Virus record (IMG/VR): IMGVR_UViG_3300045809_000028
Reading direction: 5' to 3' (one strand)
DNA length: 43,405 bases
Origin: a virus
This document shows, in pieces, positions 1-43,405 of this stretch. The notes under the pieces are model-generated. The model was not told where the DNA came from. It did not search any database and saw nothing but the letters and a program-made list of their open reading frames with translations. Position 1 is the stretch's first letter; each line of letters begins with the position of its first letter. Position numbers and translations under genes: made by a program.

Positions 1-127
1 AATGAAACGTTTAGACACTACTAAAATGCAAGAACTTGCAAATCGTGCGCTGAAAGATTGCGACACAATGGAAGAAGTCGTTGCTTTAGTTGAAGAATAC
101 GTTGCTGAATAAGGCTTTTTAAGCTTT
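1..127 (+). repeat. 127-nt exact direct terminal repeat, copy 1 (identical to 43279-43405)
   Basis: Base-for-base identity read directly. The identity runs exactly to both window edges. Confidence 0.95.
2..112 (+). CDS. 36-codon ORF ([36 protein letters not shown]) with no Shine-Dalgarno; possibly the phage-borne 3' end of the host integration target gene
   Basis: Open frame followed by a strong terminator. No GGAGG-like sequence upstream of the copy at 43280. Lies between att-like repeats next to int. Confidence 0.25.
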
Positions 128-145
128 TATTCTCAAAAATTGAAA

Positions 146-189
146 GGCTCTACCTCTCTAATTTTCAGCGGGAGGTAGAGCCTTTTTTT
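146..189 (+). terminator. Rho-independent terminator
   Basis: Perfect 11-bp stem GGCTCTACCTC (146-156) / GAGGTAGAGCC (172-182), followed by T7 (183-189). Confidence 0.75.
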
Positions 190-205
190 GTTCTGAAAAA
201 ACAAC

Positions 206-233
206 TAAATGCCAAATTAAATGCCATTTGATT
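206..233 (+). repeat. att-region repeats: TAAATGCCA at 206-214 and 218-226; 16-mer TAAATGCCATTTGATT (218-233) recurs at 43167-43182
   Basis: Exact matches read in sequence. The 16-mer ends 7 nt from the int stop codon. Confidence 0.6.
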
Positions 234-239
234 CTTTTT

Positions 240-1418
240 TTAGAAACTAGCGAAATTTGCTAGCTTATCCGCTGTAGCAATTTTTTGTTTTTGACTAACA
301 TGCGTGTAGATATTATTGGTGATTTCGATAGAAGCATGCCCAAGGATTTCTTGAGCTTCTTTCATATCTATGCCAGCTTGGTACAACATAGAAGCATGCG
401 TATGTCTCCAACCGTGTGTTCCAATGTTAGGAAGACCAACTGCTTCTGAGAGCCTTTTAGAGCGCATATACAATGATTGGCGTGTGGCATGTTCGCCTTC
501 AAAGCTAGCGAAGACAATGTTCTTATTTATAATATTCGATTGGAAAAAGAATTCTTTCTGATGCAATCGCCATTTTTTTAATATTTGACATGTTTTATTA
601 TCTAAACGAATTGTGCGATAGGAGCTTTTCGTCTTTGGTGGACCAATTTCAAAGCCATCTTTTGTTCGGGTGACAGTCTTGGAAATGCTAAGTGTTTGTT
701 GGTTGAAATCTATATCTGTTTCCCAATCAAGTGCAAGAGCTTCGCCACCACGAATTCCTGTGAATGCTAGCACTCTATACATAACTAAATCCCATTCAGC
801 AAAATACTTGTACAAAGGATTATTATTTTTTACTTCTGCAACTTTATTATTCAAGTGAGTAAAAACTTTTTCAACTTCATCCATCGTATAAAATTTGATT
901 TTCTTTACTTCTGGATCATCAGTTATTTCTTTTGGGCGAGTGACACGGATAAAAGGATTTTTTTCAATTATTTCTAGTGTTACTCCTAGTTCCATAATTT
1001 TCACAAGATATTGAACAATTACCTTGTATTGTTTCAGCTTTTTCGATAATGAATTTACTAAATCTTGTGCAACGATTGGTGATATTTGAGATACTCTCAT
1101 ACGTCCGATTACAGGAAGTACATGGTTTTTTATATTCATTTCTGTAACTAAACTAGTAGCTTCTCTAACGGTTGATTTGTACGATTCAAACCAAAGTTCA
1201 TATAAATTTTGAAATGTTTCATTTGATTTTTTCTGTAATCCTTTTTTATCAAATTCTACTTTTAATCTTGAAAGTTCTAACTGAGCTGCTTTTTTTGTTT
1301 TAAAATTACTACGGGTAGTTTTGATGGGTTTTCCTGTTGCTGGATTTGTCCCTAGATATGCTTGGAATTTCCAGCGTTTTGATCCATCTTTTTTAGTATA
1401 TTGTTTAAATGTAGCCAT
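240..1418 (-). CDS. int: Tyrosine (lambda-type) site-specific integrase
   Basis: 392 aa. Catalytic signature: FTGIRGGEALAL (Arg), HGWRHTHAS (H-x-x-R-H), LGHASIEITNNIYTH (His, Tyr). AGGAGG lies 7 nt upstream of the ATG. Terminal position next to the att-like repeats. Confidence 0.95.
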   Translation of the reverse strand: MATFKQYTKKDGSKRWKFQAYLGTNPATGKPIKTTRSNFKTKKAAQLELSRLKVEFDKKGLQKKSNETFQNLYELWFESYKSTVREATSLVTEMNIKNHVLPVIGRMRVSQISPIVAQDLVNSLSKKLKQYKVIVQYLVKIMELGVTLEIIEKNPFIRVTRPKEITDDPEVKKIKFYTMDEVEKVFTHLNNKVAEVKNNNPLYKYFAEWDLVMYRVLAFTGIRGGEALALDWETDIDFNQQTLSISKTVTRTKDGFEIGPPKTKSSYRTIRLDNKTCQILKKWRLHQKEFFFQSNIINKNIVFASFEGEHATRQSLYMRSKRLSEAVGLPNIGTHGWRHTHASMLYQAGIDMKEAQEILGHASIEITNNIYTHVSQKQKIATADKLANFASF

Positions 1419-1437
1419 TTCTTTTCCTCCTAGTATT

Positions 1438-1450
1438 ACGTGTGGGGCGT
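1438..1450 (+). repeat. 13-mer ACGTGTGGGGCGT, copy 1 of 3 (others at 4276-4288 direct and 43111-43123 inverted)
   Basis: Exact GC-rich 13-mer in AT-rich non-coding DNA, 20 nt upstream of the int start codon and just upstream of its RBS. Confidence 0.7.
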
Positions 1451-1548
1451 ATTATTAAGAGGTTAAAAAATTTTGCATCACTCCTTTCAATTTGGTAAAA
1501 TAGAGTACACAAATAGCATCACATAATTGTGATTATTATTTATGGTTA

Positions 1549-1587
1549 ACACGCTCTCGCCGGCCAAAGTGAGGGGCGTGTTTTTTT
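1549..1587. terminator. Imperfect GC-rich hairpin with a T7 run on the + strand, between two minus-strand genes
   Basis: ACACGCTCTC ... GAGGGGCGTGT followed by TTTTTTT. The T-run sits on the + strand only, so it is canonical for + strand read-in and non-canonical for the minus-strand gene ending at 1586. Confidence 0.4.
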
Positions 1588-2575
1588 AATTTCTATTAAT
1601 TTCTATAATTGTTCTAGTTCTATTTTCTGATGCTTCTAAACCGAAATCAGGATTATTTTTAATAGTATTTAAAATCATTTCTTTCAAACCTAGTCTATCT
1701 ATAAGGATAACCTTACTTTTTATAGCTAAATCTCTAGCACTAGGAGTGAAATAATTTGTTGTTATTACAATCGCTTCATCAAGATTGTAGTATACTTTTC
1801 CTGCAATAATCTCTTGTACAGCTTTATTTCCTACTGGATTAGAATATCTTTTAGCTTGAATTGCATAAGTCATATTATTTTTTTTGGATTTTAAATCAAC
1901 ACCTTGATCTCCAGTAGATACAGTTACTATAGTTTTTTCAAAACCATTATTTTCGAAAATTTCCACTAAATAATTTTCGAATTCAAAACCATCCATAGAA
2001 TCAATCTTCTTCATCTCTTGTTTTAAAATTATTTTGTTACTTCTATTAATCTGTTTTTCATAAATAGAATTCAATGACTTATTATCAGATATAATTGCTT
2101 CTGATTTTTCGATTTCTTGTTTTAGAAGTGCCAACTGCTTAATGAGATCTTGATGTTCTTGATGCTTTTCATTATAATTTTCTAGTTTCAATGATAAATT
2201 GTTAGTTTCATTATTCTTTGAATCAAGTTCTTTCTCAATATTTTTTATTGAGTCTACTATTTTCTTATACGCATCTTTTTGAGTCTGAATTGAATATTCT
2301 AAAGACTCTAACTGTGTATGTAGGTCTTTGTTTTTTAATTCTAAATCTTCATTTTTATCAAATAATTCATTATAACGTGTAATCTCTTCATTTAACTCAT
2401 CAGTAGTTAAATTAGAAAAACCTCTAAAATAATAGTGAATAATTATTGTTGCAAATAAATTACATAAAATAAAGAGTGCACCAATTAATAAATCTGTACT
2501 AACTAAAGTTATAAGCAAGATGGTATTGAAAATATACAAAAACACAAAAGAAAATTTTACTATTATATTATTCAT
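1586..2575 (-). CDS. Membrane-anchored coiled-coil protein with a C-terminal Mrr_cat-like (PD-(D/E)xK) restriction-endonuclease domain; candidate defence/exclusion moron
   Basis: 329 aa. Two N-terminal hydrophobic helices (FVFLYIFNTILLITLVS..LIGALFILCNLFATIIIHYYF). A heptad-rich segment of about 130 aa follows. The C-terminus reads FEFENYLVEIFENNGF..TGDQGVDL..YAIQAKRY..VITTNYFTPSA..LIDRLGL, as in Mrr N-terminal catalytic domains. Visibly more AT-rich than neighbouring genes. Confidence 0.7.
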   Translation of the reverse strand: MNNIIVKFSFVFLYIFNTILLITLVSTDLLIGALFILCNLFATIIIHYYFRGFSNLTTDELNEEITRYNELFDKNEDLELKNKDLHTQLESLEYSIQTQKDAYKKIVDSIKNIEKELDSKNNETNNLSLKLENYNEKHQEHQDLIKQLALLKQEIEKSEAIISDNKSLNSIYEKQINRSNKIILKQEMKKIDSMDGFEFENYLVEIFENNGFEKTIVTVSTGDQGVDLKSKKNNMTYAIQAKRYSNPVGNKAVQEIIAGKVYYNLDEAIVITTNYFTPSARDLAIKSKVILIDRLGLKEMILNTIKNNPDFGLEASENRTRTIIEINRN

Positions 2576-2664
2576 TTGTTCAACTCATTTCTGATATAAT
2601 GTGTATGTGCATACTCAGTAATGAGGAACCCTAGTTGTAGCTTGAACTGCAGCTGGGGTATTTT

Positions 2665-3132
2665 TTATTTAAACCAATCAAATATTTCAATTGTTCCATT
2701 TAATCTAAAACAGATAGTATAATGACTATATTTTATTTTTCCATCACTTTTATTGGCATATACTGAAACGGCGCGTTTCAAAGTTGATAGAGGGATATCT
2801 AAAAAATCAGCACATTCTTGATAGGTTACAAGTTGCTGATGATAACAATCAACGATATCTTGTAGGGTTACCAATAAAGTAGCACCCAGATTTCGAGCCT
2901 TGTTCTCTTGTTTCTTTTCTTCAAGGGTTTCCTGTCTTGAAATATCTCCTGTACCAGTAAGATAATGTGATATTTCTTCTGCTACAGTATTATTTAAAGT
3001 AGTGCTATCTTGCTCGGGATGTAAATAAATAGTTTCATTATTAATCCATCCTTTTTGCTTATTGGGCATTAAGGGGTCAAAAACATATTTCAAATCTGAA
3101 TACTCTGCCATGAGTTTTTCGTGCAACTGCAT
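2665..3132 (-). CDS. ImmA/IrrE-like (COG2856) protein with a degenerate metal motif; putative anti-repressor protease partner of the XRE repressor
   Basis: Sits immediately downstream of the XRE repressor in the same operon. Size and the IYLHPEQ..VAEEISHYLTG segment resemble the ImmA HExxH region, but the first His is Glu. ATG at 3132 follows AGGTGA; the ORF could extend to a TTG at 3177. Confidence 0.5.
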   Translation of the reverse strand: MQLHEKLMAEYSDLKYVFDPLMPNKQKGWINNETIYLHPEQDSTTLNNTVAEEISHYLTGTGDISRQETLEEKKQENKARNLGATLLVTLQDIVDCYHQQLVTYQECADFLDIPLSTLKRAVSVYANKSDGKIKYSHYTICFRLNGTIEIFDWFK

Positions 3133-3148
3133 TAAATCACCTACAACT

Positions 3149-3469
3149 TTACAATGGATTATTTTTTCTGAATTCAATGTACTTCAATATATCATTCATA
3201 TCTTCTTCTGAAACGTCATCATCTACATGAGTAGCAATTAACTCGCCTTTAGGACCTAATTGTCTTTTAGGTAAAGTGTCTCTTCCTAATAGATAATCTA
3301 CTGATACATCGAAGTAGTCTGCGAGGATTTCTAAACGTTCTTTAGTAGGATTGTCTGAACTTTTCATTCTATAGAGTACATTTTTAGATAAACCAAGTTC
3401 TTCTTCAACTCTATTTAAGGATTTACCTTGTTTATCAGCTAATTTTTTTATCCTTTCAAATACTGTCAT
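3149..3469 (-). CDS. XRE-family HTH repressor (CI-like)
   Basis: MTVFERIKKLADKQGKSLNRVEEELGLSKNVLYRMKS...ILADYFDVSVDYLLGR is a classic HTH_3 domain. AAGGAG lies 8-9 nt upstream of the ATG at 3469. Divergent from a Cro-like gene. Confidence 0.9.
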   Translation of the reverse strand: MTVFERIKKLADKQGKSLNRVEEELGLSKNVLYRMKSSDNPTKERLEILADYFDVSVDYLLGRDTLPKRQLGPKGELIATHVDDDVSEEDMNDILKYIEFRKNNPL

Positions 3470-3501
3470 ATCAACAATCTCCTTAAGTATCACAAGAAAA
3501 A

Positions 3502-3692
3502 TTAACTTTTGTGTTAAAAATAGTTGATAATTGTTAACTTAAATGTTAATATAGTTCTTGTAAACAAGTTTAATAACTAAAAAGACAATAAAAACGTTAC
3601 TGATTAATAAAATGCCAACGACCAAGAAAGCTTTTAAATCAATGTTTTTTACGTCTTATTTAACTATGAATTTATATTAACATTTATGTTAA
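3502..3692. promoter_or_regulatory. Genetic switch region with three 16-bp palindromic operators TTAAC-N6-GTTAA (3502-3517, 3534-3549, 3677-3692)
   Basis: The three sites were read directly. They lie in the 290-bp divergent gap between the repressor and the cro-like gene. O1 and O2 are 32 bp apart centre to centre. TTGTAAACAA (3558-3567) and its reverse complement TTGTTTACAA (3729-3738) also bracket the region. Confidence 0.6.
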
Positions 3693-3759
3693 AAAGTGTC
3701 AACATAGTTTAAAAAATAGTTGTTAAATTTGTTTACAAAAAAGGAAAGGGGGGATCGGA

Positions 3760-3963
3760 GTGACAGATATTGCAGAAATCACTCTACAAGATAGAGAGAA
3801 AATTAAACAGTATGTTAAGTGTTCGGAAAATTTAACGTACACAATGCTTGCTAAAAGATTCAACATTAGCAAAAGCAACTTATCTTTGATTATTAACGGT
3901 AAAAATACATCGGCGGAAGCGAATAGAATTATCGACTCGATTATTACTATGTACGAATTGTAA
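3760..3963 (+). CDS. Cro-like / small HTH early regulator
   Basis: 67 aa, GTG start after a GGGGGGA-rich RBS. HTH-like segment YTMLAKRFNISKSNLSLIINGKN. First rightward gene opposite the repressor. Confidence 0.6.
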   Translation: MTDIAEITLQDREKIKQYVKCSENLTYTMLAKRFNISKSNLSLIINGKNTSAEANRIIDSIITMYEL

Positions 3964-3980
3964 AAGGAGGAGCTGGTGGA

Positions 3981-4274
3981 ATGAAATTACAAGTTGATGC
4001 AATTGATATTCTTCCTAAGCTGAGAGACGAATTTGAAAAGCTAGCTCGTGAAATCGTTGAGAGTCTTTTCAATAATTTAATGGCTAATTACATGAAACAA
4101 AAAGAATTGCCTAGATACATGAATAAAAAGCAAGCTTGTCAGTATATGAATACGTCTTTTCCTACTTTGAAAAATAAGTATATAGCTAATGGTTTACGTG
4201 TAATCACTATCGATGACGAGGAAAAGATTGATCAAAAAGACGCAGATGCATTCATGGAAAAACATAAATCATAA
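3981..4274 (+). CDS. Excisionase-family-like HTH protein (putative Xis or early regulator)
   Basis: 97 aa. The C-terminal half, MNKKQACQYMNTSFPTLKNKYIANGLRV, resembles excisionase/MerR-type winged HTH. Called partly by position in the early operon. Confidence 0.4.
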   Translation: MKLQVDAIDILPKLRDEFEKLAREIVESLFNNLMANYMKQKELPRYMNKKQACQYMNTSFPTLKNKYIANGLRVITIDDEEKIDQKDADAFMEKHKS

Positions 4275-4288
4275 AACGTGTGGGGCGT
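4271..4288 (+). repeat. 18-mer ATAAAACGTGTGGGGCGT (contains the 13-mer, copy 2); exact inverted copy at 43111-43128
   Basis: Exact match read in sequence. Intergenic, directly after the stop codon of the Xis-like gene. Confidence 0.7.
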
Positions 4289-4309
4289 AAAAAGATAGAG
4301 GTGGAAAAG

Positions 4310-4489
4310 TTGAAAAAGCATTTTAATCTGTGGGTCGTGTTGTCGTTGCCAATTTTGGTTTTGATTACAAATCAAATACATGTTGCTTTCTCATTGGCTT
4401 TACTTGGCGGTGCTTACGTTGGGCTAGGTATCAGTTACGATCAAATTTCTTTTCAGTACGACGAAAAAAAATATTTAAATAAACGCTAG
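4310..4489 (+). CDS. Small membrane protein (hypothetical)
   Basis: TTG start 5 nt after GAGGTGG. One long hydrophobic stretch, WVVLSLPILVLITNQIHVAFSLALLGGAYVGLGI. The ORF track extends to a GTG at 4280 that has no RBS. Confidence 0.45.
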   Translation: MKKHFNLWVVLSLPILVLITNQIHVAFSLALLGGAYVGLGISYDQISFQYDEKKYLNKR

Positions 4490-4543
4490 GGTTAAACCTC
4501 CAAGGGAAACGAGTACGGCGTTTATTGAATAGAAGGAGAAAAA

Positions 4544-4777
4544 ATGAATATAAGACGAAAGAAAAAAATGAAATCTATCGCAGAAAAAATTGCTGAATTA
4601 AGCGAAGAGCTTGAGATGCTGCAAGACGAAGAACAAGAGTATATGGACAATATGCCAGAGAATTTGCAAGGGTCCGAGCGATATGAAGTAGCTGACCAAG
4701 CTATTGATACTATGGAAGTTGCCATCGATAGATTGAACGACGTTTGCACCGAATTGGAAGAAATCTACGAAAATTGA
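4544..4777 (+). CDS. Hypothetical early protein (acidic, helical)
   Basis: 77 aa, GAAGGAG RBS, in the co-oriented early operon. Confidence 0.6.
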   Translation: MNIRRKKKMKSIAEKIAELSEELEMLQDEEQEYMDNMPENLQGSERYEVADQAIDTMEVAIDRLNDVCTELEEIYEN

Positions 4778-4794
4778 AAGGAGGTGAGTAGATA

Positions 4795-5070
4795 ATGCCA
4801 GAATACAAAGACGAAAAGGGTTATACCATCGATGAACAAGGTAACAAATCTGCCCAGATGACATTGACACCAACTATTTACGTTGGAGATGTAACTTTTG
4901 ATAATGGTGAAAAAGCACAGATTTTAACCACTTGGGGACAGTCACCAATAGTTAGATTTGATGATGGTTCAGAGGTGATTTGGAATTGGAAAGAAATTAT
5001 TAATGAAGCGGTAAAAATTAAGGATGCAAGAAAAAAGCCTACCTCGGCGGCAACCGAGATAAGCAAATAA
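4795..5070 (+). CDS. Hypothetical early protein
   Basis: 91 aa, AAGGAGGTGAG RBS upstream. Confidence 0.6.
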   Translation: MPEYKDEKGYTIDEQGNKSAQMTLTPTIYVGDVTFDNGEKAQILTTWGQSPIVRFDDGSEVIWNWKEIINEAVKIKDARKKPTSAATEISK

Positions 5071-5075
5071 AAAAT

Positions 5076-5318
5076 ATGAACATATCTAAGGAGAGTTTAT
5101 CACAAATGAATAAAATAGACCATTTAATAAATGTATTGGTTTTGGAATGCAAGAAACAAAATATTCCAGTATTAGTTTCAGTTTCTATTGATGATGAAAT
5201 AACCGTACAAGGTTTTGGTTCCCACTCAAGTATGACTGAATCAGTCAACGCAATTCAAAAAGCAGTAGTCGATGAATTCGAGAAAGGAGATAACGAAGAT
5301 GCCGATGAAGATCAATAG
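5076..5318 (+). CDS. Hypothetical early protein
   Basis: 80 aa in operon context. The start is uncertain; an internal ATG at codon 11 follows AAGGAG. Confidence 0.5.
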   Translation: MNISKESLSQMNKIDHLINVLVLECKKQNIPVLVSVSIDDEITVQGFGSHSSMTESVNAIQKAVVDEFEKGDNEDADEDQ

Positions 5319-6618
5319 TTTAGAAGTCGAGAACATTAAACGTGTCAAAGCAGTAGTCATTCAGCCTACAGAGAACGGCTTAACTATTCTAGGTGGGAAT
5401 AATAACCAAGGGAAGACTAGTGTATTAGATGCAATTGCTTGGGGGCTAGGTGGAAATAAATACAAACCTTCCAATCCTCAACGTGAAGGTTCTGTCACAC
5501 CACCTAATCTAAAAATTACCATGAATAACGGTCTGATTGTTGAACGTAAAGGCAAGAATTCAGATTTGAAGGTCATTGACCCTCAAGGTAACAAAGGCGG
5601 TCAACAGCTTCTAAATAGCTTTGTAGAAGAGCTAGCCATTGACCTACCAAAGTTTATGGAATCTTCTTCTAAAGACAAAGCGAATATTTTACTACAGATC
5701 ATCGGTATTGGTGATCTGTTGGAAAAATTGGAAATGGAAGAGAAATCCATCTACAACGAACGTTATCAAGTCGGACGGATTGCCGATCAAAAGAAAAAGT
5801 TTGCTGAGGAACAACCGCACTATGCTGATGCGCCTAAGGAATTAATTTCTACTATGGATTTAATTCAACAGCAACAACAAATTCTAGCTATCAATGGTGA
5901 AAATCAACGGAAACGTGAAAATGTTCAACGTCTACAAAATAAGTTTGATTATGAGGCACAACAAATTGAGCAACTACGCCAACAGTTAGCCAAAATGGAA
6001 GAAACGCATCAATTGACTGCCAATGATTTAGCGATTGCTCAAACGTCTGCAAAAGATTTACAAGATCAATCAACAGCAGAATTGGAACAGAGTCTTCAAA
6101 ACGTGGAACAAATCAATGTGAAGGTTCGTGCGAATTTTGATAAGGAAAAAGCGGAGTTGGACGCAGAAGAATACGCAAAACAATACCGAGCATTAGATGA
6201 AGGAATTAAAGCAGTTCGAGAAGAGCGCATGAAGCTATTGAACAACGCTCAGTTGCCTTTACCTGGACTATCTGTGTTAGAGGGAGAATTAATCTACAAC
6301 GGCCAACAGTGGGACAACATGAGCGGTTCTGATCAGCTAAAAGTATCTACTGCCATTGTTCGTAAGTTGAAACCAGAATGCGGTTTTGTCTTGCTGGATA
6401 AATTGGAACAAATGGATATGATTACGCTGAACGAATTTAGTCAGTGGTTACAGCAAGAAGGACTGCAAGCAATTGCAACACGTGTTTCAACGGGCGATGA
6501 ATGTAGCATTATTATTGAAGATGGCTATGTAACTGAAAATAAATTACTTGAGGGCGGAACACCACCTCAACAAGCAACATCTAATACAACACCAACGTGG
6601 ACGAAAGGAGCATTTTAA
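5299..6618 (+). CDS. SMC/RecF/RecN-like AAA ATPase (phage recombination/replication)
   Basis: N-terminus INSLEVENIKRVKAVVI..LTILGGNNNQGKTSVLDAIAWGLGG (Walker A of the SMC_N/AAA_23 type). Long Q/E-rich coiled coil in the middle. C-terminal FVLLDKLEQMD (Walker B-like). ATG at 5299 follows AAAGGAG. Confidence 0.75.
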   Translation: MPMKINSLEVENIKRVKAVVIQPTENGLTILGGNNNQGKTSVLDAIAWGLGGNKYKPSNPQREGSVTPPNLKITMNNGLIVERKGKNSDLKVIDPQGNKGGQQLLNSFVEELAIDLPKFMESSSKDKANILLQIIGIGDLLEKLEMEEKSIYNERYQVGRIADQKKKFAEEQPHYADAPKELISTMDLIQQQQQILAINGENQRKRENVQRLQNKFDYEAQQIEQLRQQLAKMEETHQLTANDLAIAQTSAKDLQDQSTAELEQSLQNVEQINVKVRANFDKEKAELDAEEYAKQYRALDEGIKAVREERMKLLNNAQLPLPGLSVLEGELIYNGQQWDNMSGSDQLKVSTAIVRKLKPECGFVLLDKLEQMDMITLNEFSQWLQQEGLQAIATRVSTGDECSIIIEDGYVTENKLLEGGTPPQQATSNTTPTWTKGAF

Positions 6619-6620
6619 AT

Positions 6621-7670
6621 ATGAATATTACGCGAGGAGTTATTGCTAAAGCACAAAAGCTAGTAATTTACGGACCAGAAGGGATTGGTAAATCAACATT
6701 AGCTGCACAATTTCCTAATCCATTATTTATTGACACGGAAGGCAGTACCAATAATATGGACGTCGCTCGTTTAGATAAACCATCAAGCTGGACTATGTTG
6801 CTGCAACAAATCGATTTTGTAAAACAAACGATGCCTTGCAACACTTTGATAATCGATACAGCAGATTGGGCAGAACGATTATGCATTGATTACGTTGTTT
6901 CAAATGCGAATAAAACCAGTATCACACAGTTTGGATATGGTGAGGGATTTATTCAATTAGAAGAAGTATTCGGTAAATTTCTAAATAAATTAACAGATTT
7001 AGCAGAAATTGGCATCAATATTGTTCTTACTGCCCATGCAAAAATTGTGAAATTTGAACAACCGGATGAAATGGGTGCCTATGATCGTTGGGAATTAAAG
7101 TTAGGAAATAAAACCACTGCTAAAACTGCTTCAATTACGAAGGAGTGGGCGGATGCAGTATTGTTCTGCAATTACAAAACGTTGTCGGTAGCTGCAGATG
7201 ATAAAGGTAAAAAATTTAAGGGACAAGGAGGTAAACGTGTCATGTACACAACGCACCATCCAGCATGGGACGCAAAAAATCGTTTTGGCTTACCTGATGA
7301 AATGGATATGAATTTTTCTGGAATAGCACATATTTTCGCTAGTCAACAACAAGCAGTACCGCAACCTACGACAATGCCAGAACCAATCGTAGAACAGCCA
7401 AAATTAGAGTCTTCAACAACGGAATCAACACCGAACTTCGAACGGGAATCTGTCGATTATACAGGCATTCCACAAAACTTAGTGGATTTAATGCAAGCAA
7501 ACAATGTGTTGCCAGGGGAAATTATGGCAGCGACTGAATCAAAAGGCTACTACCCTGTAGGAACACCGATTCAGAACTATGATCGAGGATACATTGACGG
7601 CGTATTAGTCGCTGCATGGGAGCAAGTCTTCGCAATGATTAAAGAAATTAGAAACCAACAAACATTTTAG
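6621..7670 (+). CDS. AAA_24 / Sak4-like RecA-fold ATPase
   Basis: KLVIYGPEGIGKSTLAAQFPNPLFIDTEGS (Walker A) and LIIDTADW (Walker B). Typical partner of a DUF669 gene in Firmicute phage replication modules. Confidence 0.75.
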   Translation: MNITRGVIAKAQKLVIYGPEGIGKSTLAAQFPNPLFIDTEGSTNNMDVARLDKPSSWTMLLQQIDFVKQTMPCNTLIIDTADWAERLCIDYVVSNANKTSITQFGYGEGFIQLEEVFGKFLNKLTDLAEIGINIVLTAHAKIVKFEQPDEMGAYDRWELKLGNKTTAKTASITKEWADAVLFCNYKTLSVAADDKGKKFKGQGGKRVMYTTHHPAWDAKNRFGLPDEMDMNFSGIAHIFASQQQAVPQPTTMPEPIVEQPKLESSTTESTPNFERESVDYTGIPQNLVDLMQANNVLPGEIMAATESKGYYPVGTPIQNYDRGYIDGVLVAAWEQVFAMIKEIRNQQTF

Positions 7671-7682
7671 GAGGAAAAATAA

Positions 7683-8252
7683 ATGACACAACAATACCAA
7701 CAAGACCGCGAATTAGGATGGGATGACACAATTGTTCAAGACAGTGAAGGAGGTATTGTCTTAGCACCAGGAGATTATATTTTTGAAGTTGTTAAATTTG
7801 AACGTGCACGATTTACACCAGGACCAACATCTAAATTACCAGCATGTAATATGGCTAAATTGGAATTGAAAATTCAATCAGAACAAGGGACGGCGATTGT
7901 TTTCAACAATTTATACTTGCATACGTCAACAGAAGGTTTGTTATCAGCTTTCTTTGCTTCAATTGGTCAAAAAGTGAAAGGTGCACCGTTACAAATGAAT
8001 TGGAATTTAGTGACTGGTGCGAAAGGGGCAGTCAAAATTAAGAATCGGACATATAAAGACAATACTTACAATGATGTTGACCGTTTCTATCCATTAGATG
8101 CTAGTTATTACACAATAAAAGAAGCACCAGAAGTTGTCAAACAGCTACAACAACCAGCGCAAGGCTATCAAGCACCACAACAACAGAATTGGTCAGCGCC
8201 TACACAACAACCGACGCAACCGACACAAGGCTATCAACCAGGAGCTTTCTAG
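7683..8252 (+). CDS. DUF669-like phage protein with a Q/P-rich tail
   Basis: Sits directly after the AAA_24 gene. The N-terminal LAPGDYIFEVVKFE pattern is typical of DUF669. Call is partly by synteny. Confidence 0.5.
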   Translation: MTQQYQQDRELGWDDTIVQDSEGGIVLAPGDYIFEVVKFERARFTPGPTSKLPACNMAKLELKIQSEQGTAIVFNNLYLHTSTEGLLSAFFASIGQKVKGAPLQMNWNLVTGAKGAVKIKNRTYKDNTYNDVDRFYPLDASYYTIKEAPEVVKQLQQPAQGYQAPQQQNWSAPTQQPTQPTQGYQPGAF

Positions 8253-8263
8253 GAGGGATATGT

Positions 8264-8464
8264 TTGATACTAAAATCAGGTCATTATACTCAAGAATTTA
8301 AGGAACATATCGATTGGGTTATTGAAGAATTAAAAAAAGATAGCACTATAATAGGCTATCTCGAATTAGATTGGTTTGATGAACCAACAACAATTGATAT
8401 GAAACTGGCAGAAAAAATTAGAAGAGCTATCCACCAAGGCCTTTACTCACAAAATGACCAATGA
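8264..8464 (+). CDS. Hypothetical early protein
   Basis: TTG start 7 nt after AGGAGG. 66 aa. The 3' end overlaps the convergent gene 8427-9224 by 38 nt. Confidence 0.45.
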   Translation: MILKSGHYTQEFKEHIDWVIEELKKDSTIIGYLELDWFDEPTTIDMKLAEKIRRAIHQGLYSQNDQ

Positions 8465-9224
8465 AAGCTGAAATTATATTGGTAATAATAAAAGCAATTG
8501 GTACAAAGTACGGTTTTTCTTTGAATCTGTACCAATATGCCCGTAGAGATGCTCCATACAAATCTTTTTCTGAAGTATTAGTCTTAAGAGTTCTATCTAT
8601 AGCCATATTAACCATTTGTGTAAACATACGGACTTTACTAGATGTAGACATACTTAATTCGTAGTATTTTCCTTCTTCAAAAGCTTTTGCCTCAGCAGCA
8701 CCAGTAAGGTATTGTTTTGGTTCTAAAGTATTTTTAATCATAAGATGGTCCATTTTTTTATCTTCGATGTAATCTGGTCCATAAAGTTCTTTGAATAGAG
8801 AAGCAATATTGATTTGTTGATTGTCCGAAAGTAAGAAAGGATGCCCACCCAATACTTGATAACGGTGTTCTAGTGCTTTAAAACCAAAAATCGAATCTCT
8901 CATATTCCAATGCAACCACGTCTTATTATTATTATTTCTTAAAAAGTCGAAATATTCGTCTAACATCTCTTTTTCAATTTCGTTGTATCGATCAACAATT
9001 TCGTCAAAAGGTATTCCCATTTCTTCAGCAGATTTATAAATTGCAAATAACTCTGTTTGACCAAATTCGAGATTTTCGACTGCAATTGAGGTTATCCTTG
9101 GACTTTTCCCACCAAGTGCAAAAAAACTCTCGCTTGAATAATGAATAACCAAATATTTAGATTTTTCTTTATCTATTTCTTTTAAAGTATTTAAACCTTT
9201 CAATCTATCAGTAATACGACTCAT
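8427..9224 (-). CDS. Antisense moron 1: 265-aa protein of unknown function with a C-terminal transmembrane helix
   Basis: GGAGG lies 6 nt upstream of the ATG. The only long ORF here and opposite to the replication operon. C-terminal YFVPIAFIITNIISAFIGHFV. AT-rich. Confidence 0.75.
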   Translation of the reverse strand: MSRITDRLKGLNTLKEIDKEKSKYLVIHYSSESFFALGGKSPRITSIAVENLEFGQTELFAIYKSAEEMGIPFDEIVDRYNEIEKEMLDEYFDFLRNNNNKTWLHWNMRDSIFGFKALEHRYQVLGGHPFLLSDNQQINIASLFKELYGPDYIEDKKMDHLMIKNTLEPKQYLTGAAEAKAFEEGKYYELSMSTSSKVRMFTQMVNMAIDRTLKTNTSEKDLYGASLRAYWYRFKEKPYFVPIAFIITNIISAFIGHFVSKGLGG

Positions 9225-9248
9225 TGTAATCCTCCATTTTTTTATCTC

Positions 9249-9254
9249 ATTATA
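9249..9254 (-). promoter_or_regulatory. Perfect -10 (TATAAT on the minus strand) for antisense moron 1
   Basis: ATTATA on the + strand, about 25 nt upstream of the start at 9224. The -35 would fall on the helicase start codon. Confidence 0.4.
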
Positions 9255-9276
9255 TATCTAAAGAAAGGAATGTGCT

Positions 9277-10866
9277 ATGAAATTAAGACCTTATCAACAA
9301 GAAGCACGTACTGCAATCCAAAAGGAATGGCAAGAAGGGCGTAAAAAAACGTTACTTGTCCTTCCGACTGGTTGTGGTAAAACAATCGTATTTTCAAAAG
9401 TAATTGAAGACCGTGTAAGACTAGGCGAGCGTGTGCTCGTCTTAGCCCACCGGGGCGAATTACTAGACCAGGCATCAGAAAAATTAGAAAAGTCTACTGG
9501 ACTAAAAACGGCAACAGAAAAAGCTGAACAGACTAGCATTGGTGGTTTCTTTCGTGTAGTTGTTGGTTCCGTTCAAACGTTACAACGAGAAAAACGCCTT
9601 AGCAAGTTTCCACCGGATTTTTTTGACACGATTGTTGTAGATGAAGCTCACCATTGTATCAGTAATGGCTACCAATTTGTTTTGAAGCACTTTAAGGAAT
9701 CGAATGTTTTAGGTGTTACAGCAACGCCTGACCGTGGAGATATGCGAAACCTTGGTTCTTATTTCGAATCCTTAGCTTACGAATATACGTTACCAGAGGC
9801 AATCAAATCAGGATATTTGTCACCAATTAAAGCATTGACTATCCCGCTGAAACTAGATTTAACTTCTGTTGGTCAACAAGGCGGAGATTTTAAAACAAGG
9901 GATTTAGGTACGGCATTAGATCCCTATCTTTATCAGATAGCTGATGAAATGGCGAAACATTGTTTAAACAGGAAAACAGTTGTCTTTCTTCCATTAGTCA
10001 AAACGAGTAAAAAGTTTCGGGATATTTTGAATGAAAAAGGATTTAAAGCTGCAGAAGTCAATGGCACGTCTAAGGATCGTGAGGAGATTCTTTCGGATTT
10101 TGATAAGGATAAATACAATGTACTGTGCAATTCGATGTTACTTACTGAGGGTTGGGACTGTCCGTCTGTCGATTGTATCGTGGTTTTAAGACCAACGAAA
10201 GTCCGTAGCTTATACAGTCAGATGGTAGGACGTGGCACACGATTGTTTCCAGGTAAGGAAGAGTTATTGCTATTAGATTTCTTGTGGCACACCGAACGTC
10301 ATGAACTATGTCATCCGGCACATTTAATTGCCACTAGTGATGATGTAGCTAAGAAAATGACAGAAAACATTGAAGAAGCTGGTGAACAAGGATTTGCAGT
10401 TGATATTGAAGAAGCTGAATCACAAGCTGAAAAAGATGTCATTGCCGAGCGCGAAGAAGCGCTAGCGAAAAAACTGGAAGAAATGCGCAAACGAAAACGT
10501 AAACTAGTAGACCCATTGCAATTTGAAATGTCGATTCAAGCGGAAGATTTAACGAGTTATGTACCAAGTTTCGGTTGGGAAATGGGACCACCGTCTACAC
10601 AACAAGTAAATGCGTTAGAAAAATTAGGTATTTTACCAGATGCCATCGATAACGCAGGAAAAGCTAGCCTCATGCTTGACCGTCTACAAAAACGGAAAGA
10701 AGCAGGGCTAGCTACACCTAAGCAAATTCGATTATTAGAACAACGCGGATTTAAATCAGTCGGTACATGGTCATTCGATAATGCCAGCAAAATGATTAAT
10801 CGTATTGCGGCTAATGGATGGCGATTACCAAGTGGTGTGAGACCGACGGAATATCAACCAGAATAG
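9277..10866 (+). CDS. SF2 DEAD/DEAH-box helicase (ResIII + Helicase_C)
   Basis: Motif I LPTGCGKT, motif II VVDEAHH, motif III VTATPDR, motif VI QMVGRGTR. 529 aa. Confidence 0.9.
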   Translation: MKLRPYQQEARTAIQKEWQEGRKKTLLVLPTGCGKTIVFSKVIEDRVRLGERVLVLAHRGELLDQASEKLEKSTGLKTATEKAEQTSIGGFFRVVVGSVQTLQREKRLSKFPPDFFDTIVVDEAHHCISNGYQFVLKHFKESNVLGVTATPDRGDMRNLGSYFESLAYEYTLPEAIKSGYLSPIKALTIPLKLDLTSVGQQGGDFKTRDLGTALDPYLYQIADEMAKHCLNRKTVVFLPLVKTSKKFRDILNEKGFKAAEVNGTSKDREEILSDFDKDKYNVLCNSMLLTEGWDCPSVDCIVVLRPTKVRSLYSQMVGRGTRLFPGKEELLLLDFLWHTERHELCHPAHLIATSDDVAKKMTENIEEAGEQGFAVDIEEAESQAEKDVIAEREEALAKKLEEMRKRKRKLVDPLQFEMSIQAEDLTSYVPSFGWEMGPPSTQQVNALEKLGILPDAIDNAGKASLMLDRLQKRKEAGLATPKQIRLLEQRGFKSVGTWSFDNASKMINRIAANGWRLPSGVRPTEYQPE

Positions 10867-10869
10867 TTA

Positions 10870-11565
10870 CTAATCAGGAATTATTTGACTTAAATAAAAC
10901 ATGGCCTCATTACATTTTTCATCATATAATACAGCCTCTGTATAACTAAGTGACTGGTAGTGTTCAGCTTTAACTTCTTCCTCTAAGGAATGTAAATTAT
11001 TTAGAAATTCATAAAAACTTTTCTTTATCATTCTAATATTAACCATAGAATCTAAAATATCATTCACTGATAAATTTTCATTATCAGCCAGACTATTGGG
11101 AAGGTGAGGAACCATAGAAAATATCTTTTTTTCAACAATATTCCATGAGTTAATTATAGATAAACGTGGATTAACAGAAGCAATCATATCTGTTTCTTTA
11201 TGGACAGATTGTGGATTTGGAAATAATTTTTTGCTGAAATCCTTGTATTTGTTGGATTCAGTTATATTTTCAGAGTCGGAAGAATGGGACTGTTTATTAG
11301 GTTCTTTGTTAGGTTGTTTTTCATTTACGATGTCAAGTAATACCTCGTTTGAGTTATCGTTTTTAATAAGGTTTTCACCAAATGATAGCTCTTTATCTCC
11401 CATTTTAAAATGACTAACTCTTTGAGAAAGTTTATTCAGACCTTGTAAAAAACTTTTTTTATAAATGATGGAGATAACTAAAGCTAACAAAGGCCATGAG
11501 AAATTATTATAGAGAATAAAAAAATAATAAAAAATAGATTTACAGATTTCCTTGAAAGTTTCCAT
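10870..11565 (-). CDS. Antisense moron 2: 231-aa protein of unknown function with an N-terminal transmembrane segment
   Basis: ATG (METFKE...) lies 6 nt after AAGGAG. Hydrophobic N-terminus IFYYFFILYNNFSWPLLALVISIIY. Stop codon is 3 nt from the helicase stop (convergent). Very AT-rich. Confidence 0.7.
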   Translation of the reverse strand: METFKEICKSIFYYFFILYNNFSWPLLALVISIIYKKSFLQGLNKLSQRVSHFKMGDKELSFGENLIKNDNSNEVLLDIVNEKQPNKEPNKQSHSSDSENITESNKYKDFSKKLFPNPQSVHKETDMIASVNPRLSIINSWNIVEKKIFSMVPHLPNSLADNENLSVNDILDSMVNIRMIKKSFYEFLNNLHSLEEEVKAEHYQSLSYTEAVLYDEKCNEAMFYLSQIIPD

Positions 11566-11584
11566 AAAAAACTCCTTTATTTTT

Positions 11585-11593
11585 ATCATACCA
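11585..11593 (-). promoter_or_regulatory. Extended -10 promoter TGGTATGAT for antisense moron 2
   Basis: ATCATACCA on the + strand, about 20 nt upstream of the start at 11565. Same TGGTATNAT form as three other moron promoters. Confidence 0.45.
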
Positions 11594-27321: not shown

Positions 27322-27903
27322 ATGTTCAGCCTTTACTATCAGCCAGAAGATGTCATAAAAATTGAGGGTAAAGAGTATAAAGTTACGGTTACTTTCGATA
27401 ACATTCTGAAAATCATTGATATGACGAATGAAAAACGATTAGCTCCTAATTATAAAATCAGATTAGGGTTACAAATGTTTTTTGGTTCAGATACAGATTT
27501 GATTGCCTTACCATTAGATATTCAGTCCAATATTTTTAATCAAACATTTTATAATTATGTGAATCAAGGGAAAGAAGAACCGATTCATACAGATTTAGCT
27601 GGTAATCCGTTACCAGCAAATTATAAAAAAGACAAAGAAAATTTTTATTCTTTAAAATATGATGCAGAGTACATATATGCATCATTTATGCAGGCATATG
27701 GTATTGATTTAATCGAACAGCAAGGTAAATTACATTGGCATAAATTTCAGGCGCTACTTGCAGGACTTCCAGAAGATACGAAGTTCAGGCAAGTAGTGTC
27801 TATTCGTATGTGGAAAAAGCCTAGCAAACACGATACAGAAGAAAAACAAATGATGAAATTGAAAGATGTGTATCGATTACCTGATGAAAGCGAGGTGGAA
27901 TGA
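27322..27903 (+). CDS. Phage Gp15-family protein (tail assembly, gpT position)
   Basis: 193 aa. The N-terminus MFSLYYQPEDVIKIEGKEYKVTVTFDNILKIIDM is typical of the Gp15 family found immediately upstream of the TMP. Confidence 0.55.
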   Translation: MFSLYYQPEDVIKIEGKEYKVTVTFDNILKIIDMTNEKRLAPNYKIRLGLQMFFGSDTDLIALPLDIQSNIFNQTFYNYVNQGKEEPIHTDLAGNPLPANYKKDKENFYSLKYDAEYIYASFMQAYGIDLIEQQGKLHWHKFQALLAGLPEDTKFRQVVSIRMWKKPSKHDTEEKQMMKLKDVYRLPDESEVE

Positions 27904-30900
27904 TGGCTGATGGACGTGTTGTAATTTCGGTAGATGTTGATGGTAAATCTGTAAAAGTTTTAAATGGAGATTTGGATCAATTGGAAGGTAAGAGTCAAAA
28001 GGCTAGTTCTGGAATAAAGAATATGGTAACTGCTATTGGATTAGTCAAAGTCGCTAGTGCTGCATTTAATATTTTAAAAAGTTCACTTGATAGTGCCATA
28101 TCTCGTTTCGATACTATGCAAAAATTTCCGAAAGTCCTTAGTGCATTGGGATACAGCGCAGAAGATAGTGAAAAATCTATTAATATGTTATCTGACGGAA
28201 TTGATGGTTTACCAACCAAATTAGATGATGTTGTTGCTTCCACACAACAAATGACGGCAATTACTGGTGATCTCGAAGGTTCAACGAAAACCGTTCTAGC
28301 TTTAAATAATGCCTTTCTTGCCTCGGGGGCATCCACTGACGATGCTAGTCGTGGAATGCAACAGTTTAATCAAATGTTAAGTACAGGATCTGTGGATCTC
28401 GAAAGTTGGAAAACTTTGCAGGAAACAATGCCTTTAGCTTTGCAAAAAACAGCTGAAGCAATGGGATATACAGGTCGAAGTGCTCAACGTGATTTGTATG
28501 CAGCTTTGAAAGAAGGTACTGTTACATTCGATGAATTTCAAGGGAAATTAATTGAACTTGGTACGGGAACTGGCATGTTAGCTGATTTGGCAAAAGAGAA
28601 TAGTCTGGGAATTGCAACAAGTATTGGTAATTTACGTAATAGTGTTTCAAAGAATTTAGCAAATATGATTACGAAATTTGATGAATTTACTCAAGCATTA
28701 ACTGGTAAAACCATTGCTCAAAATATTGATGGATTAAAAGGGATTGTCAATGATACTTTTGGGTTTATCATTGAGCAAATGGATTATGCTATTCAACATA
28801 CTGATGAAATAAAAGAGTTGTTCGGCGAAGCTAAAATAGTATTTGAAGAACTAAAAGAAGTTGCAATATTACTTGCTCCAGCTATATCAGCAGTTGCTGG
28901 TGCGCTTATAGCGTTGAAAATTGCCTCGTTGGTATCGTCAGCAATTCAAATGGTTACTGTTGCAGTCACTGGTTTACACATAGCTATGATGACTTTAAGC
29001 AATTTAGGACTTGTCGGAACAATTAAAATGTTACTAGGTTTTATGGGACCTGTAGGATGGATTATCGCTGCAATTGGCGCTTTGATTGGTGTATTTACTT
29101 ATTTCTACACCACCAACGAAACCTTCCGAAATGGATTGAATAATCTTATAACAACTATTCGTGATGGATTAGTTACAGCGTTTCAATTTTTAATGCAAGT
29201 ATTATCGGGAATTTTACCAACTTTGCAGACTGTTGCGTCTGTTGTTGGTAATACACTTGTTTTAGGTTTCCAAAAAATGATAACGATAGGCTCTGAAATT
29301 GCAGCAATTGTTGTTCCTGCAATTCAAAATTTTGTACAAGCTGTGAAAGATTTGATGGCTTCAGGCATTGATAGATTAGCATCTATTTTATCTACTATTG
29401 GTAATTTTTTATCAGGAGTATTTTCTTCGGGAGTTAGTTTAGCTAATGGATTGTTAGAAAGTATGGGAGGTAGTTTTGGTAAATTAGGTGGAGTTCTCTC
29501 TTTAGTAGTTAGTATGTTAACTAAATTAGCTTTGGTTATATTAGGGGTATCTGGTCCAATGGGTACTATTATTTCATTAGTTGTGGCATTTATAGCTGCA
29601 TGGCTAAAAACTGGAGATTTATCTACTGGTGGAATCACTAAAGTATTTGAAGATTTGCAACAAAAAATTGGGAGTGTTGCTGATTTTATTAGTAGTAATC
29701 TTCCAAGGTTTATCGAATTAGCTACCAATTTGATTACTAGTTTTTTAAATGGTTTAACTGCGGCTCTACCTGGAATAATTACAGTAGCTTCTCAAATTAT
29801 TACTATGATAGTAGATGCTATCGTTCAATATTTGCCTATGCTTATTGGTCTGGCTACTCAAGTGATAACGACATTGGTAAATGGTATAGCGACTGCGTTA
29901 CCTATATTATTATCAGTTGGTATGCAAATCATTATGCAAATTGTTACTGCTATTACGACAGTTCTTCCACAACTTATACAAATAGGTATTACAATATTAA
30001 CAACATTGATAAATGGAATTATTAGTGCACTACCAGTAATAATTGAGGTTATTATCACGATTATTACAACATTAATTGACACTTTTCTTACACTATTACC
30101 CATGTTTTTAGATGTTGGATTACAGATTATAACTACTTTAGTCAATGCAATCATTACAGCGTTGCCAACATTAGTAAGTGTAGGTTTAACAGCAGTAACA
30201 AGCCTGCTAGGAGCATTTATAGCTGCGTTACCGATGTTAATCGGTGCAGGTATTCAAATTTTAATGGCGTTGATAGATGGTGTGTTATCTATGTTGCCGA
30301 CGTTAATCTTAGCTGCTGTACAAATTACTTTAGCCCTTGTGGGTGCTTTAATTGATGCATTACCTCAATTAATAAGTGCTGGAATCCAACTGTTAATGGC
30401 GTTGATTAACGGTATTCTATCCATCTTGCCTCAATTGATAGCTGCAGGCATTCAAATTATTGTCGCATTGTTAGGGGCGTTAATTGATTCATTGCCGAAA
30501 TTACTTGATGCAGGTATTCAATTAATAACAGCTTTGGTTAAAGGTGTTATATCTATTCTTCCTCAACTTGTTTCAGCAGCGATTCAGTTAATCGTGGCGT
30601 TATTAAGAGCGTTGTTGGACGCTTTGCCACAACTGCTCGATGCAGGTATTCAATTAATCGGAGCGTTAATCAGTGGTGTTTTAAGTCTTTTGGGCCAATT
30701 ACTTTCTGCAGGAGCTGAACTGATTGTTGGCTTACTAGGAACACTTCTTGGCTTTGTTGGTGATCTGTTATCTGCAGGTGTTGAATTAATCGTTAATTTT
30801 GTATCTGGTCTAATCAGTGTTATTGATGATGTTGTTTCAACTGCAATTGATATCGGCACAGCAATTTGGGATACTCTTTCAAGTATTGATTTGTTTGAAA

Positions 30901-42278: not shown

Positions 42279-42331
42279 AAGTAACACCTCACTTTTTAAA
42301 TTATTGTATCACAGAATAAAAAAACTATACA

Positions 42332-43278: not shown

Positions 43279-43405
43279 AATGAAACGTTTAGACACTACT
43301 AAAATGCAAGAACTTGCAAATCGTGCGCTGAAAGATTGCGACACAATGGAAGAAGTCGTTGCTTTAGTTGAAGAATACGTTGCTGAATAAGGCTTTTTAA
43401 GCTTT
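43279..43405 (+). repeat. 127-nt exact direct terminal repeat, copy 2 (contains the duplicate of the 36-codon ORF at 43280-43390)
   Basis: Identical to 1-127. Confidence 0.95.

Follow-up and report, generated by a model that had tools for sequence, protein, structure and literature searches.

The 43,405-nucleotide IMG/VR virus record IMGVR_UViG_3300045809_000028 (the window, meaning the whole stretch) carries, directly upstream of its integrase gene (int), a gene for a 329-residue (aa) protein in which a transmembrane (TM) hairpin and a coiled-coil stalk precede a nuclease domain of the Mrr_cat family. The active site of the nuclease is intact and conserved, and the placement directly upstream of int recurs among relatives. 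The gene probably helps the lysogen through interference with DNA that enters the cell. A more specific reading, which we favor tentatively, is that the protein is a prophage-encoded, membrane-sequestered, coiled-coil-dimerized DNase of the Mrr type which cuts incoming phage DNA and provides direct superinfection exclusion. The architecture class is not categorically new, as it has one validated member, the Epona cassette of Vibrio cholerae, and one mechanistic analogue, the Escherichia coli system SNIPE. In the searched literature, the following appear undescribed: a TM, coiled-coil and Mrr_cat family of Enterococcaceae, TM-anchored Mrr_cat proteins as recurrent int-adjacent occupants in temperate phages of Firmicutes, and TM-anchored Mrr_cat genes fixed in the chromosomes of certain lactic acid bacteria. 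Literature searches on Mrr together with the lysogeny module, superinfection or the PADLOC family PDC-S02 gave no description of the TM, coiled-coil and Mrr_cat family.

Architecture and active site of the protein

The open reading frame (ORF), 1586..2575 on the minus strand, starts with ATG and is complete according to the ORF list. An earlier note made from the letters of the window (the sequence-only reading) had divided the 329-aa product into two N-terminal TM helices, a coiled coil and a C-terminal nuclease domain, and had called for a structure prediction, a Pfam PF04471 search and a PADLOC search. The three-part layout was borne out by the ORF list, by Pfam and by an AlphaFold2 (AF2) model of the single chain, which was built from a 67-sequence alignment, has a mean predicted local distance difference test score (pLDDT) of 86 and resolves all three parts. 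The two TM helices are likewise found where they had been claimed. A Kyte-Doolittle scan gives one continuous hydrophobic stretch at residues 3-50, and AF2 splits the hydrophobic N-terminus into helices at residues 2-24 and 29-53. The hairpin sequence is conserved in the relative P0002 and in a Vagococcus relative (VKFSFVFLYIFN, IKLAFLFLYIFN, VKIAFVFLYLFS), and its topology would be N-in/C-in. Residues 1-60 match no holin or other TM family in Pfam or PHROG. The possibility that the N-terminus is a module shuffled onto other effectors was rejected, since a profile of residues 1-187 fetched only 4 proteins, all with Mrr_cat.

The middle part, residues 58-160, is a genuine coiled coil of ~100 residues. 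Its hydrophobic periodicity peaks at exactly 3.50 residues, a value reached by 0 of 5000 shuffles, and one heptad register runs across residues 58-134 without proline or glycine. The a and d positions are 73% hydrophobic, with Asn75 and Asn82 among the residues at a; asparagine at coiled-coil a positions is typical of dimers. The protein is probably homodimeric, and the stalk would be about 15 nm long when fully extended. The sequence-only reading had been right about the coiled coil and too generous about its length, as its estimate of ~130 residues takes in the helix at residues 169-193, from which the heptad signal is absent. The pLDDT falls below 50 at residues 162-169 and again at residues 320-329; the alpha/beta core of the model spans residues 196-307. 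Despite the predicted disorder of the C-terminal tail, its ...IIEIN(R/K) ending is common to the window protein, P0002 and P0245, and the tail may act as a regulatory or docking peptide.

The C-terminal part had been described as a nuclease of the Mrr-type PD-(D/E)xK fold. The four motifs on which that description relied (FEFENYLVE, GDQGVDL, IQAKRY and ITTNYFT) are all present, and the Pfam search returned a full-length match to Mrr_cat (PF04471; E=7.5e-28; 97.4 bits, where the gathering cut-off is 21; aligned over profile positions 1-115 of 115). Overlapping matches to NA-iREase1 (PF22722, 4.7e-9) and Mrr_cat_2 are weaker; identity with NA-iREase1, an inactive restriction endonuclease (REase), was ruled out by the intact catalytic residues and the stronger Mrr_cat match. 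In the 67-sequence alignment, E200, T218, G222, D223, G225, D227, Q240 and K242 are invariant. Among 271 unique relatives drawn from proteins, viral loci and genomes, the catalytic residues are kept almost without exception (E200 in 268, D223 in 269, D227 in 270, Q240 in 269 and K242 in 271). When solved structures were searched by sequence, the single protein gave only coiled-coil noise to occludin, and the alignment profile gave only the Mrr-like nuclease motif of LlaBIII (Type ISP), pairing the core with DtGVDL...IQAKfY. The solved folds nearest to the AF2 model in a Foldseek search are MspJI, AF1548 (1y88), AspBHI, EcoT38I, the Avs4 nuclease domain and Hjc, with a root-mean-square deviation of 2.6 Å over 108 columns for AF1548. 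Because the core is conserved and aligned to LlaBIII and the fold lies near MspJI, AF1548 and Hjc, the domain is predicted to be a catalytically competent PD-(D/E)xK nuclease and not an inactive REase.

Membrane anchoring among relatives

The nuclease domain is widespread: phmmer, run exhaustively against 1.84 billion cluster representatives (clusters at 50% identity), gave 17,378 matches at E<=1e-3, of which 10,196 reached E<=1e-10. N-terminal TM segments were found in more than half of the 120 best 90%-cluster matches (sample a), in 76 of the 137 best 50%-cluster representatives (55%; sample b), in 83/91 ORFs of viral and context loci (sample c) and in 49/81 ORFs of species-representative genomes (sample d); samples a and b overlap in protein collections and hence are not independent. 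The anchor may consist of 1-4 TM helices, of TM2 domains, or of a zinc ribbon with one TM helix, and between about 5 and >400 residues link it to the nuclease. Lysine and arginine in 15 residues average 3.65 after the last TM segment versus 1.62 before the first (51 clusters versus 19). The positive-inside bias across the family places the nuclease domain in the cytoplasm. Since ~55% of the subfamily is anchored and follows the positive-inside rule, TM anchoring is best regarded as selected rather than incidental. The sequence-only reading had called the tethered layout non-canonical; this holds for restriction enzymes, but the layout is not unusual, as ~55% of the Mrr_cat subfamily is TM-anchored. 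The exact TM, coiled-coil and Mrr form is rare, with about 7 clusters. Its full-length matches are P0002 (45% identity), P0245, P0241, P0252, P0272 and P0365, and the named organisms of the group are Vagococcus and Enterococcus, both Enterococcaceae.

These observations bear on whether the protein is an ordinary Type IV (Mrr-like) or Type II-like restriction enzyme with an incidental hydrophobic N-terminus, discriminating by modification or sequence, which we consider very unlikely. Databases label the family "restriction endonuclease," the nearest solved folds MspJI and AspBHI are modification-dependent, and the mREase_IV models of PADLOC match the domain at 1e-7. However, residues 1-190 contain only TM helices and the coiled coil, with no Mrr_N, SRA or similar DNA-recognition domain by Pfam or in the AF2 model, and without the winged-helix Mrr_N they do not fit Type IV Mrr sensu stricto. 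A restriction-modification pair was also rejected, as a Pfam scan of ten unassigned or opposite-strand ORFs of the phage found no methyltransferase among those ten. Furthermore, the frequency of the anchor and its positive-inside bias argue that the N-terminus is under selection.

Recurrence directly upstream of the integrase gene

Eighty IMG/VR loci out of 419 matches were examined. A tyrosine integrase within 5 kb was downstream and co-oriented in 48/48 phage loci (context loci and the window included), and the arrangement was the same in 14/14 clusters after dereplication at 50% identity. Coordinates and Pfam agree with the earlier placement of the gene downstream of, and co-oriented with, the repressor and ImmA genes and before int. 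The suggestion that it occupies a moron slot between int and the repressor holds more widely, as TM-anchored Mrr_cat genes recur directly upstream of int in unrelated temperate phages.

The TM, coiled-coil and Mrr layout itself occurs in three independent prophages. The prophage of P0002 (L001) has the order helix-turn-helix (HTH) gene, Peptidase_M78 (M78) gene, TM, coiled-coil and Mrr gene, 332-aa gene and int, and in a Lentilactobacillus parabuchneri prophage HTH and M78 are followed by further genes, a 367-aa two-TM, coiled-coil and Mrr gene, two small genes and int. In Jekyll, a cultured phage of Roseburia, the order is Xre-like repressor, ImmA-like "toxin," Mrr_cat gene, HslV-like protease and integrase; its Mrr_cat gene has a zinc-ribbon/TM2/Mrr_cat layout and is annotated "putative restriction endonuclease." The interval between nuclease and int holds no gene in the window, the 332-aa protein in L001, and proteins of 85 aa and 103 aa in L005. 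A multi-gene system was rejected, as there is no conserved partner gene and the interval differs in each prophage. The 332-aa ORF of L001, at 9024-10022 (+), is itself nuclease-sized, has no counterpart in the window and matches nothing in Pfam or PADLOC.

The gene had been called much more AT-rich than the core genes, and indeed it is the stretch of lowest GC content in the phage. Its GC is 0.246 and its third-codon-position GC 0.161, compared with a window mean of 0.350 (standard deviation 0.036), and 0/849 sliding 990-bp windows of the 43.4-kb sequence are as low. This strongly deviant composition suggests recent horizontal acquisition.

Expression signals

The expectation that the gene is probably expressed in lysogens was not supported: there is no canonical terminator after ImmA, yet the leader may occlude the ribosome-binding site. 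The leader that separates the nuclease gene from ImmA folds into a pair of hairpins; the presumed Shine-Dalgarno sequence (GAG) lies in the 3' arm of hairpin 2, in the context CAGAAAUGAG in the window and CAGAAAUGGGG in L001. The leader of P0002's phage (L001 7913-8000, plus strand) folds in the same way, with a z of -2.1 compared with -2.4 in the window; the stem letters of hairpin 1 differ between the two phages and its pairing is retained. The P0002 gene starts with TTG. The structured leader and the TTG start of the homologue suggest deliberately low translation, on two sequences with thin covariation, and the leader may serve as translational damping of a toxic gene by occluding the ribosome-binding site. 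The two-hairpin leader was not seen at L089, L090 or L005, nor in chromosomal relatives, and its structure rests on two sequences.

No canonical coding-strand terminator was found between ImmA and the nuclease gene. The hairpins at 1554-1575 and 2628-2659 have, on the coding strand, an A-run before and no T-run after them. With their T-runs confined to the plus strand, they resemble terminators of antisense transcription alone, and the idea that a terminator cuts the gene off from the repressor operon was rejected. The missing terminator is compatible with, and no proof of, co-transcription of ImmA and nuclease. The flanking hairpins may instead insulate the lysogeny operon from antisense read-through, e.g., from the convergent, highly expressed host ptsI. 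The best sigma-70-like site, upstream of the repressor operon, is a weak candidate promoter for a rep-immA-nuclease(-int) transcript by consensus match only, and promoter-like sites are no more frequent than in shuffles.

Proposed mode of action

We propose that the protein is a DNase of the Mrr type, anchored in the inner membrane and probably homodimeric, which a temperate phage with a host among the Enterococcaceae carries as cargo of its lysogeny module. The N-in/C-in TM hairpin would hold the protein in the membrane, and the dimer-type coiled coil of ~100 residues would extend two PD-(D/E)xK domains into the cytoplasm, by up to about 15 nm. The lysogen would make the protein at a low level, with or downstream of the repressor/ImmA transcript. 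DNA entering through the membrane would be cut and superinfecting phages thereby excluded, and membrane sequestration would protect the nucleoid from the nuclease. This would be the logic of SNIPE built from non-homologous parts, with Mrr_cat taking the place of GIY-YIG and a plain coiled coil that of DUF4041.

The same membrane location and low translation could also belong to an abortive-infection (Abi) or toxic effector, an explanation we regard as rather unlikely. An inactive membrane nuclease would be freed or activated by infection and degrade host and phage DNA; in a variant, the TM hairpin would damage the membrane as holins do, the Mrr domain would sense DNA, and the cell would die or arrest. 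Before infection the nuclease would be kept inactive by its confinement to the membrane, by its C-terminal tail or by weak translation. The slot between int and the repressor is classically home to Abi genes, which favors such an effector, and the conserved ...IIEIN tail and the Shine-Dalgarno-occluding leader hint at tight control of a dangerous protein. In the screen that included Epona, most of the other systems tested in V. cholerae led to lysis or growth arrest at high multiplicity of infection (bioRxiv 10.1101/2024.07.02.601686), although the infection dynamics of Epona itself are absent from that paper. On the other hand, the N-terminus resembles no holin family in Pfam or PHROG, the invariant catalytic residues indicate an enzyme and not a mere sensor, and neither a sensor domain (Pfam) nor a conserved partner gene was found. 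SNIPE, which has the same overall logic, provides direct immunity (PMC13190303).

Other points weigh against direct exclusion of incoming phage DNA by the window protein. Support for this protein and its close relatives is purely computational, and the charge bias of its own TM segments is weak, with one K/R on each side. The proposal of a defense candidate is plausible by comparison with Epona and SNIPE, but the PADLOC search gave no whole-protein match to any defense family, its significant hits covering the nuclease domain only. In addition, the protection by Epona was confined to E. coli (bioRxiv 10.1101/2024.07.02.601686), the DUF4041 of SNIPE has no counterpart in the window protein, and phage entry into Gram-positive cells differs from the lambda/ManYZ route on which SNIPE acts. 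Furthermore, a full-length relative occupies one chromosomal site in Vagococcus bubulae and V. luciliae (L090, L170), between sbcCD and plsC/plsX/recG, and a ~190-aa gene with two TM helices and Mrr_cat is syntenic in at least 9 Lacticaseibacillus-group species (L123 and L154 included), with an aldose epimerase on one side and the mevalonate operon on the other. Such chromosomal synteny is as readily explained by a housekeeping or domesticated role as by defense.

Because the Vagococcus and Lacticaseibacillus genes are chromosomal and vertically inherited, the class is not strictly phage cargo. The prophage copy could then descend from a chromosomal gene for a housekeeping membrane nuclease that is not primarily antiviral, acting in DNA processing at the membrane or septum, in limiting uptake by transformation or conjugation, or in host DNA degradation after induction; we judge this quite unlikely. 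In addition to the Vagococcus synteny beside sbcCD and near recG and plsX and the synteny across the Lacticaseibacillus group, only 11/81 loci in species-representative genomes are integrase-linked, and RNase Y of Firmicutes likewise combines a membrane anchor, a coiled coil and a nuclease. However, the phage copies lie in the lysogeny or moron slot and not in replication or lysis modules, and the strongly deviant GC of the window gene marks recent horizontal acquisition. The short forms of Enterococcus share no flanks, and a full-length Enterococcus copy adjoins a Schlafen/DUF2075-type helicase. Epona, alike in architecture by description, is a validated anti-phage gene, and fixed chromosomal defense genes are common, so synteny is compatible with defense.

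A broader proposal, which we hold to be doubtful, is that TM-anchored Mrr_cat proteins form a large class of entry-site nucleases of an origin independent of SNIPE, which would tell self from non-self by location only, serve as int-adjacent superinfection exclusion in Firmicutes phages, and be chromosomally fixed as innate immunity in Vagococcus and Lacticaseibacillus. A stalk of variable length (5 to >400 residues) would keep a non-specific PD-(D/E)xK DNase just below the membrane, and any DNA under injection would be cut. If the window protein works as proposed, spatial self/non-self discrimination, recently shown for one E. coli GIY-YIG system, would reach a second, unrelated nuclease fold and would also extend to Gram-positive hosts and to prophage-encoded superinfection exclusion. 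It would further give a function to thousands of entries (~10,200 clusters at 50% identity and E<=1e-10, with ~55% of the closest TM-anchored), most of the named ones annotated "restriction endonuclease." The int-adjacent slot and the cultured phage Jekyll offer tractable test cases, and the differing linkers form a natural experiment on the distance that the nuclease needs to keep from the membrane.

The phage, its host and neighboring genes

The coordinates of the protein parts, expression signals and lysogeny genes are listed in Table 1. Positions 1-127 of the window are identical to 43279-43405, a perfect terminal direct repeat of 127 bp, so that the window represents a complete phage genome of ~43.28 kb (about 43,278 bp), assembled as a circle; the overlap would be the leftover of a k=127 assembler. 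The last 36 codons of ptsI, encoding enzyme I of the phosphotransferase system, are carried by the phage at window 2..112 (+). A Joint Genome Institute (JGI) metagenome contig (L004) matches window 1..10575 at 99.99% identity, after which it runs on into the 3' end of host ptsI (L004 10464-11369); it encodes P0001, from a JGI metagenome cluster, which equals the window protein in length and differs from it once, with E for K at position 152. The ptsI fragment and the run of L004 into ptsI together indicate that the phage integrates at the ptsI 3' end, and judging from these sequences integration would rebuild that end. A bidirectional terminator-like hairpin lies at about 142-158, between ptsI and int.

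Table 1. Positions of the features discussed, in window coordinates (residues are those of the 329-aa protein)
Feature	Position	Strand	Description
TM hairpin	2417..2572	-	helices at residues 2-24 and 29-53, 4-residue loop (STD); Kyte-Doolittle and AF2
Coiled-coil stalk	2096..2404	-	residues 58-160; one unbroken AF2 helix, pLDDT 89-96
Hinge and connector helix	1997..2095	-	residues 161-168 of low confidence; helix 169-193
Mrr_cat PD-(D/E)xK nuclease (predicted)	1673..2005	-	residues 191-301; Pfam PF04471
Catalytic core	1850..1978	-	E200, D223, D227, Q240, K242; motif E...GDxGxD...QxK
C-terminal tail	1589..1654	-	residues 308-329, ending ...IIEINRN; predicted disordered
Leader	2576..2664	-	89 nt between ImmA and nuclease gene; hairpin 1 at 2628-2659, hairpin 2 at 2584-2625
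GC-rich hairpin	1554..1575		just past the stop codon; T-run on + strand only
Tyrosine integrase	240..1418	-	Pfam Phage_integrase 1.3e-27, with SAM-like and arm-binding domains; directly downstream of the nuclease gene, co-oriented
ImmA/Peptidase_M78	2665..3177	-	Pfam Peptidase_M78 7.3e-7; upstream, co-oriented
HTH repressor	3149..3493	-	Pfam HTH_3 1.4e-8; upstream, co-oriented
cro-like gene	3760..3963		divergent from the repressor operon
Best sigma-70-like promoter (weak candidate)	3674..3702	-	TTGACA-17-TAATAT with TG; upstream of the repressor operon

Only metagenomic copies match the PtsI fragment at 100% identity; identity is 88-90% in Enterococcus/Tetragenococcus and 83% in Vagococcus. 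By this identity the host is predicted to be a member of Enterococcaceae. When bases 1-6000 were compared by megablast with 50,697 phage records, no close relative emerged; the only match, of 211 bp at 83%, was to Enterococcus phage 4995_1 within the cro-like gene. The repressor and ImmA genes match PHROG 8 and PHROG 87.

Further accessory genes were observed elsewhere in the phage. At 40072-41215 (+), a 169-aa protein with a SocA/Panacea antitoxin domain (Pfam 1.5e-8) is overlapped on the 3' side of its gene by a 223-aa ORF which has no match in Pfam or PADLOC; the pair resembles, from its sequences, a PanA-type toxin-antitoxin and may be a second accessory or defense module. Five minus-strand ORFs without a solid family match (8427-9224, 10870-11589, 38586-39629, 41901-42287 and 42332-42853) sit within or after plus-strand modules and are probably further morons; the product of one, of 347 aa, is coiled-coil/TM-like and weakly matches ZorA/DndD-type coiled coils, and that of another is an RseC/DUF2207-like membrane protein of 128 aa. 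GC is also low around 41-42.3 kb. Four tandem repeats with 132-nt spacing and 61-70% identity at 30205-30688 (+), in an ORF of 1158 aa (27900..31376), look like the repeat region of a tape measure protein.

Comparison with known systems

Systems that share a homologous catalytic domain with the window protein, with an E...D...D...QxK site, include Mrr/MspJI/AspBHI, LlaBIII, ZorD and Avs4; these are soluble, and carry recognition domains, helicase/translocase motors or STAND sensors. The PADLOC hits are confined to the nuclease domain. ZorD (8e-18) is matched at profile positions 938-1062 of 1071, PDC-S02 (3.5e-9) at 226-341 of 390 and 164-298 of 324, and the best mREase_IV model (1e-7) at 415-525 of 544. 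These domain hits cover approximately residues 173-303 of the query, with a weaker mREase_IV hit (E=1.2e-6) starting at residue 128, and the hits to JetC, LmuB and DruC are coiled-coil noise. PHROG 19856, which matches residues 135-308, the "restriction endonuclease" proteins of uncultured Siphoviridae and the Jekyll protein belong to the same Mrr_cat subfamily, and many of them are TM-anchored and lie in the slot between repressor/ImmA and integrase. They differ in their anchors, which are a TM2 domain, a zinc ribbon with one TM helix, or bundles of 3-4 TM helices, and their linkers vary.

Epona is a single-gene cassette of the V. cholerae N16961 superintegron (Darracq et al., bioRxiv 10.1101/2024.07.02.601686). 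It was described as Mrr_cat with an N-terminal two-TM module and gave phage resistance experimentally (bioRxiv 10.1101/2024.07.02.601686). By this published description, and not by sequence, Epona resembles the window protein in being a single gene on a variable or mobile element with Mrr_cat and two TM helices. It differs in its Gram-negative host and in belonging to an integron rather than to a prophage lysogeny module, and, because integron cassettes are small, it probably has no coiled coil of ~100 residues.

SNIPE (formerly PD-lambda-1) joins a TM helix at its N-terminus to DUF4041 and a GIY-YIG domain in the cytoplasm (Saxton et al., Nature 2026, PMC13190303); the work on it was done in E. 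coli with lambda-like siphoviruses dependent on ManYZ (PMC13190303). Its homologues carry one TM helix in 59% of cases and two in 7%, with hypervariable N-terminal regions (PMC13190303). Pfam finds neither GIY-YIG nor DUF4041 (at E<=0.1) in the window protein, which has no sequence homology to SNIPE; its nuclease is PD-(D/E)xK where SNIPE has GIY-YIG, and a plain heptad coiled coil without a Pfam match stands where SNIPE has DUF4041, a domain that binds DNA and the tape measure protein (PMC13190303). The two nevertheless share a single-gene layout of N-terminal anchor, elongated helical middle and C-terminal nuclease predicted to be cytoplasmic. SNIPE resides constitutively at the inner membrane and cuts lambda DNA during injection, an immunity that is direct; its sequestration there guards against self-cleavage, and without its TM helix it becomes a chromosome-cutting toxin (PMC13190303). 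By analogy, SNIPE is the best functional model for the window protein.

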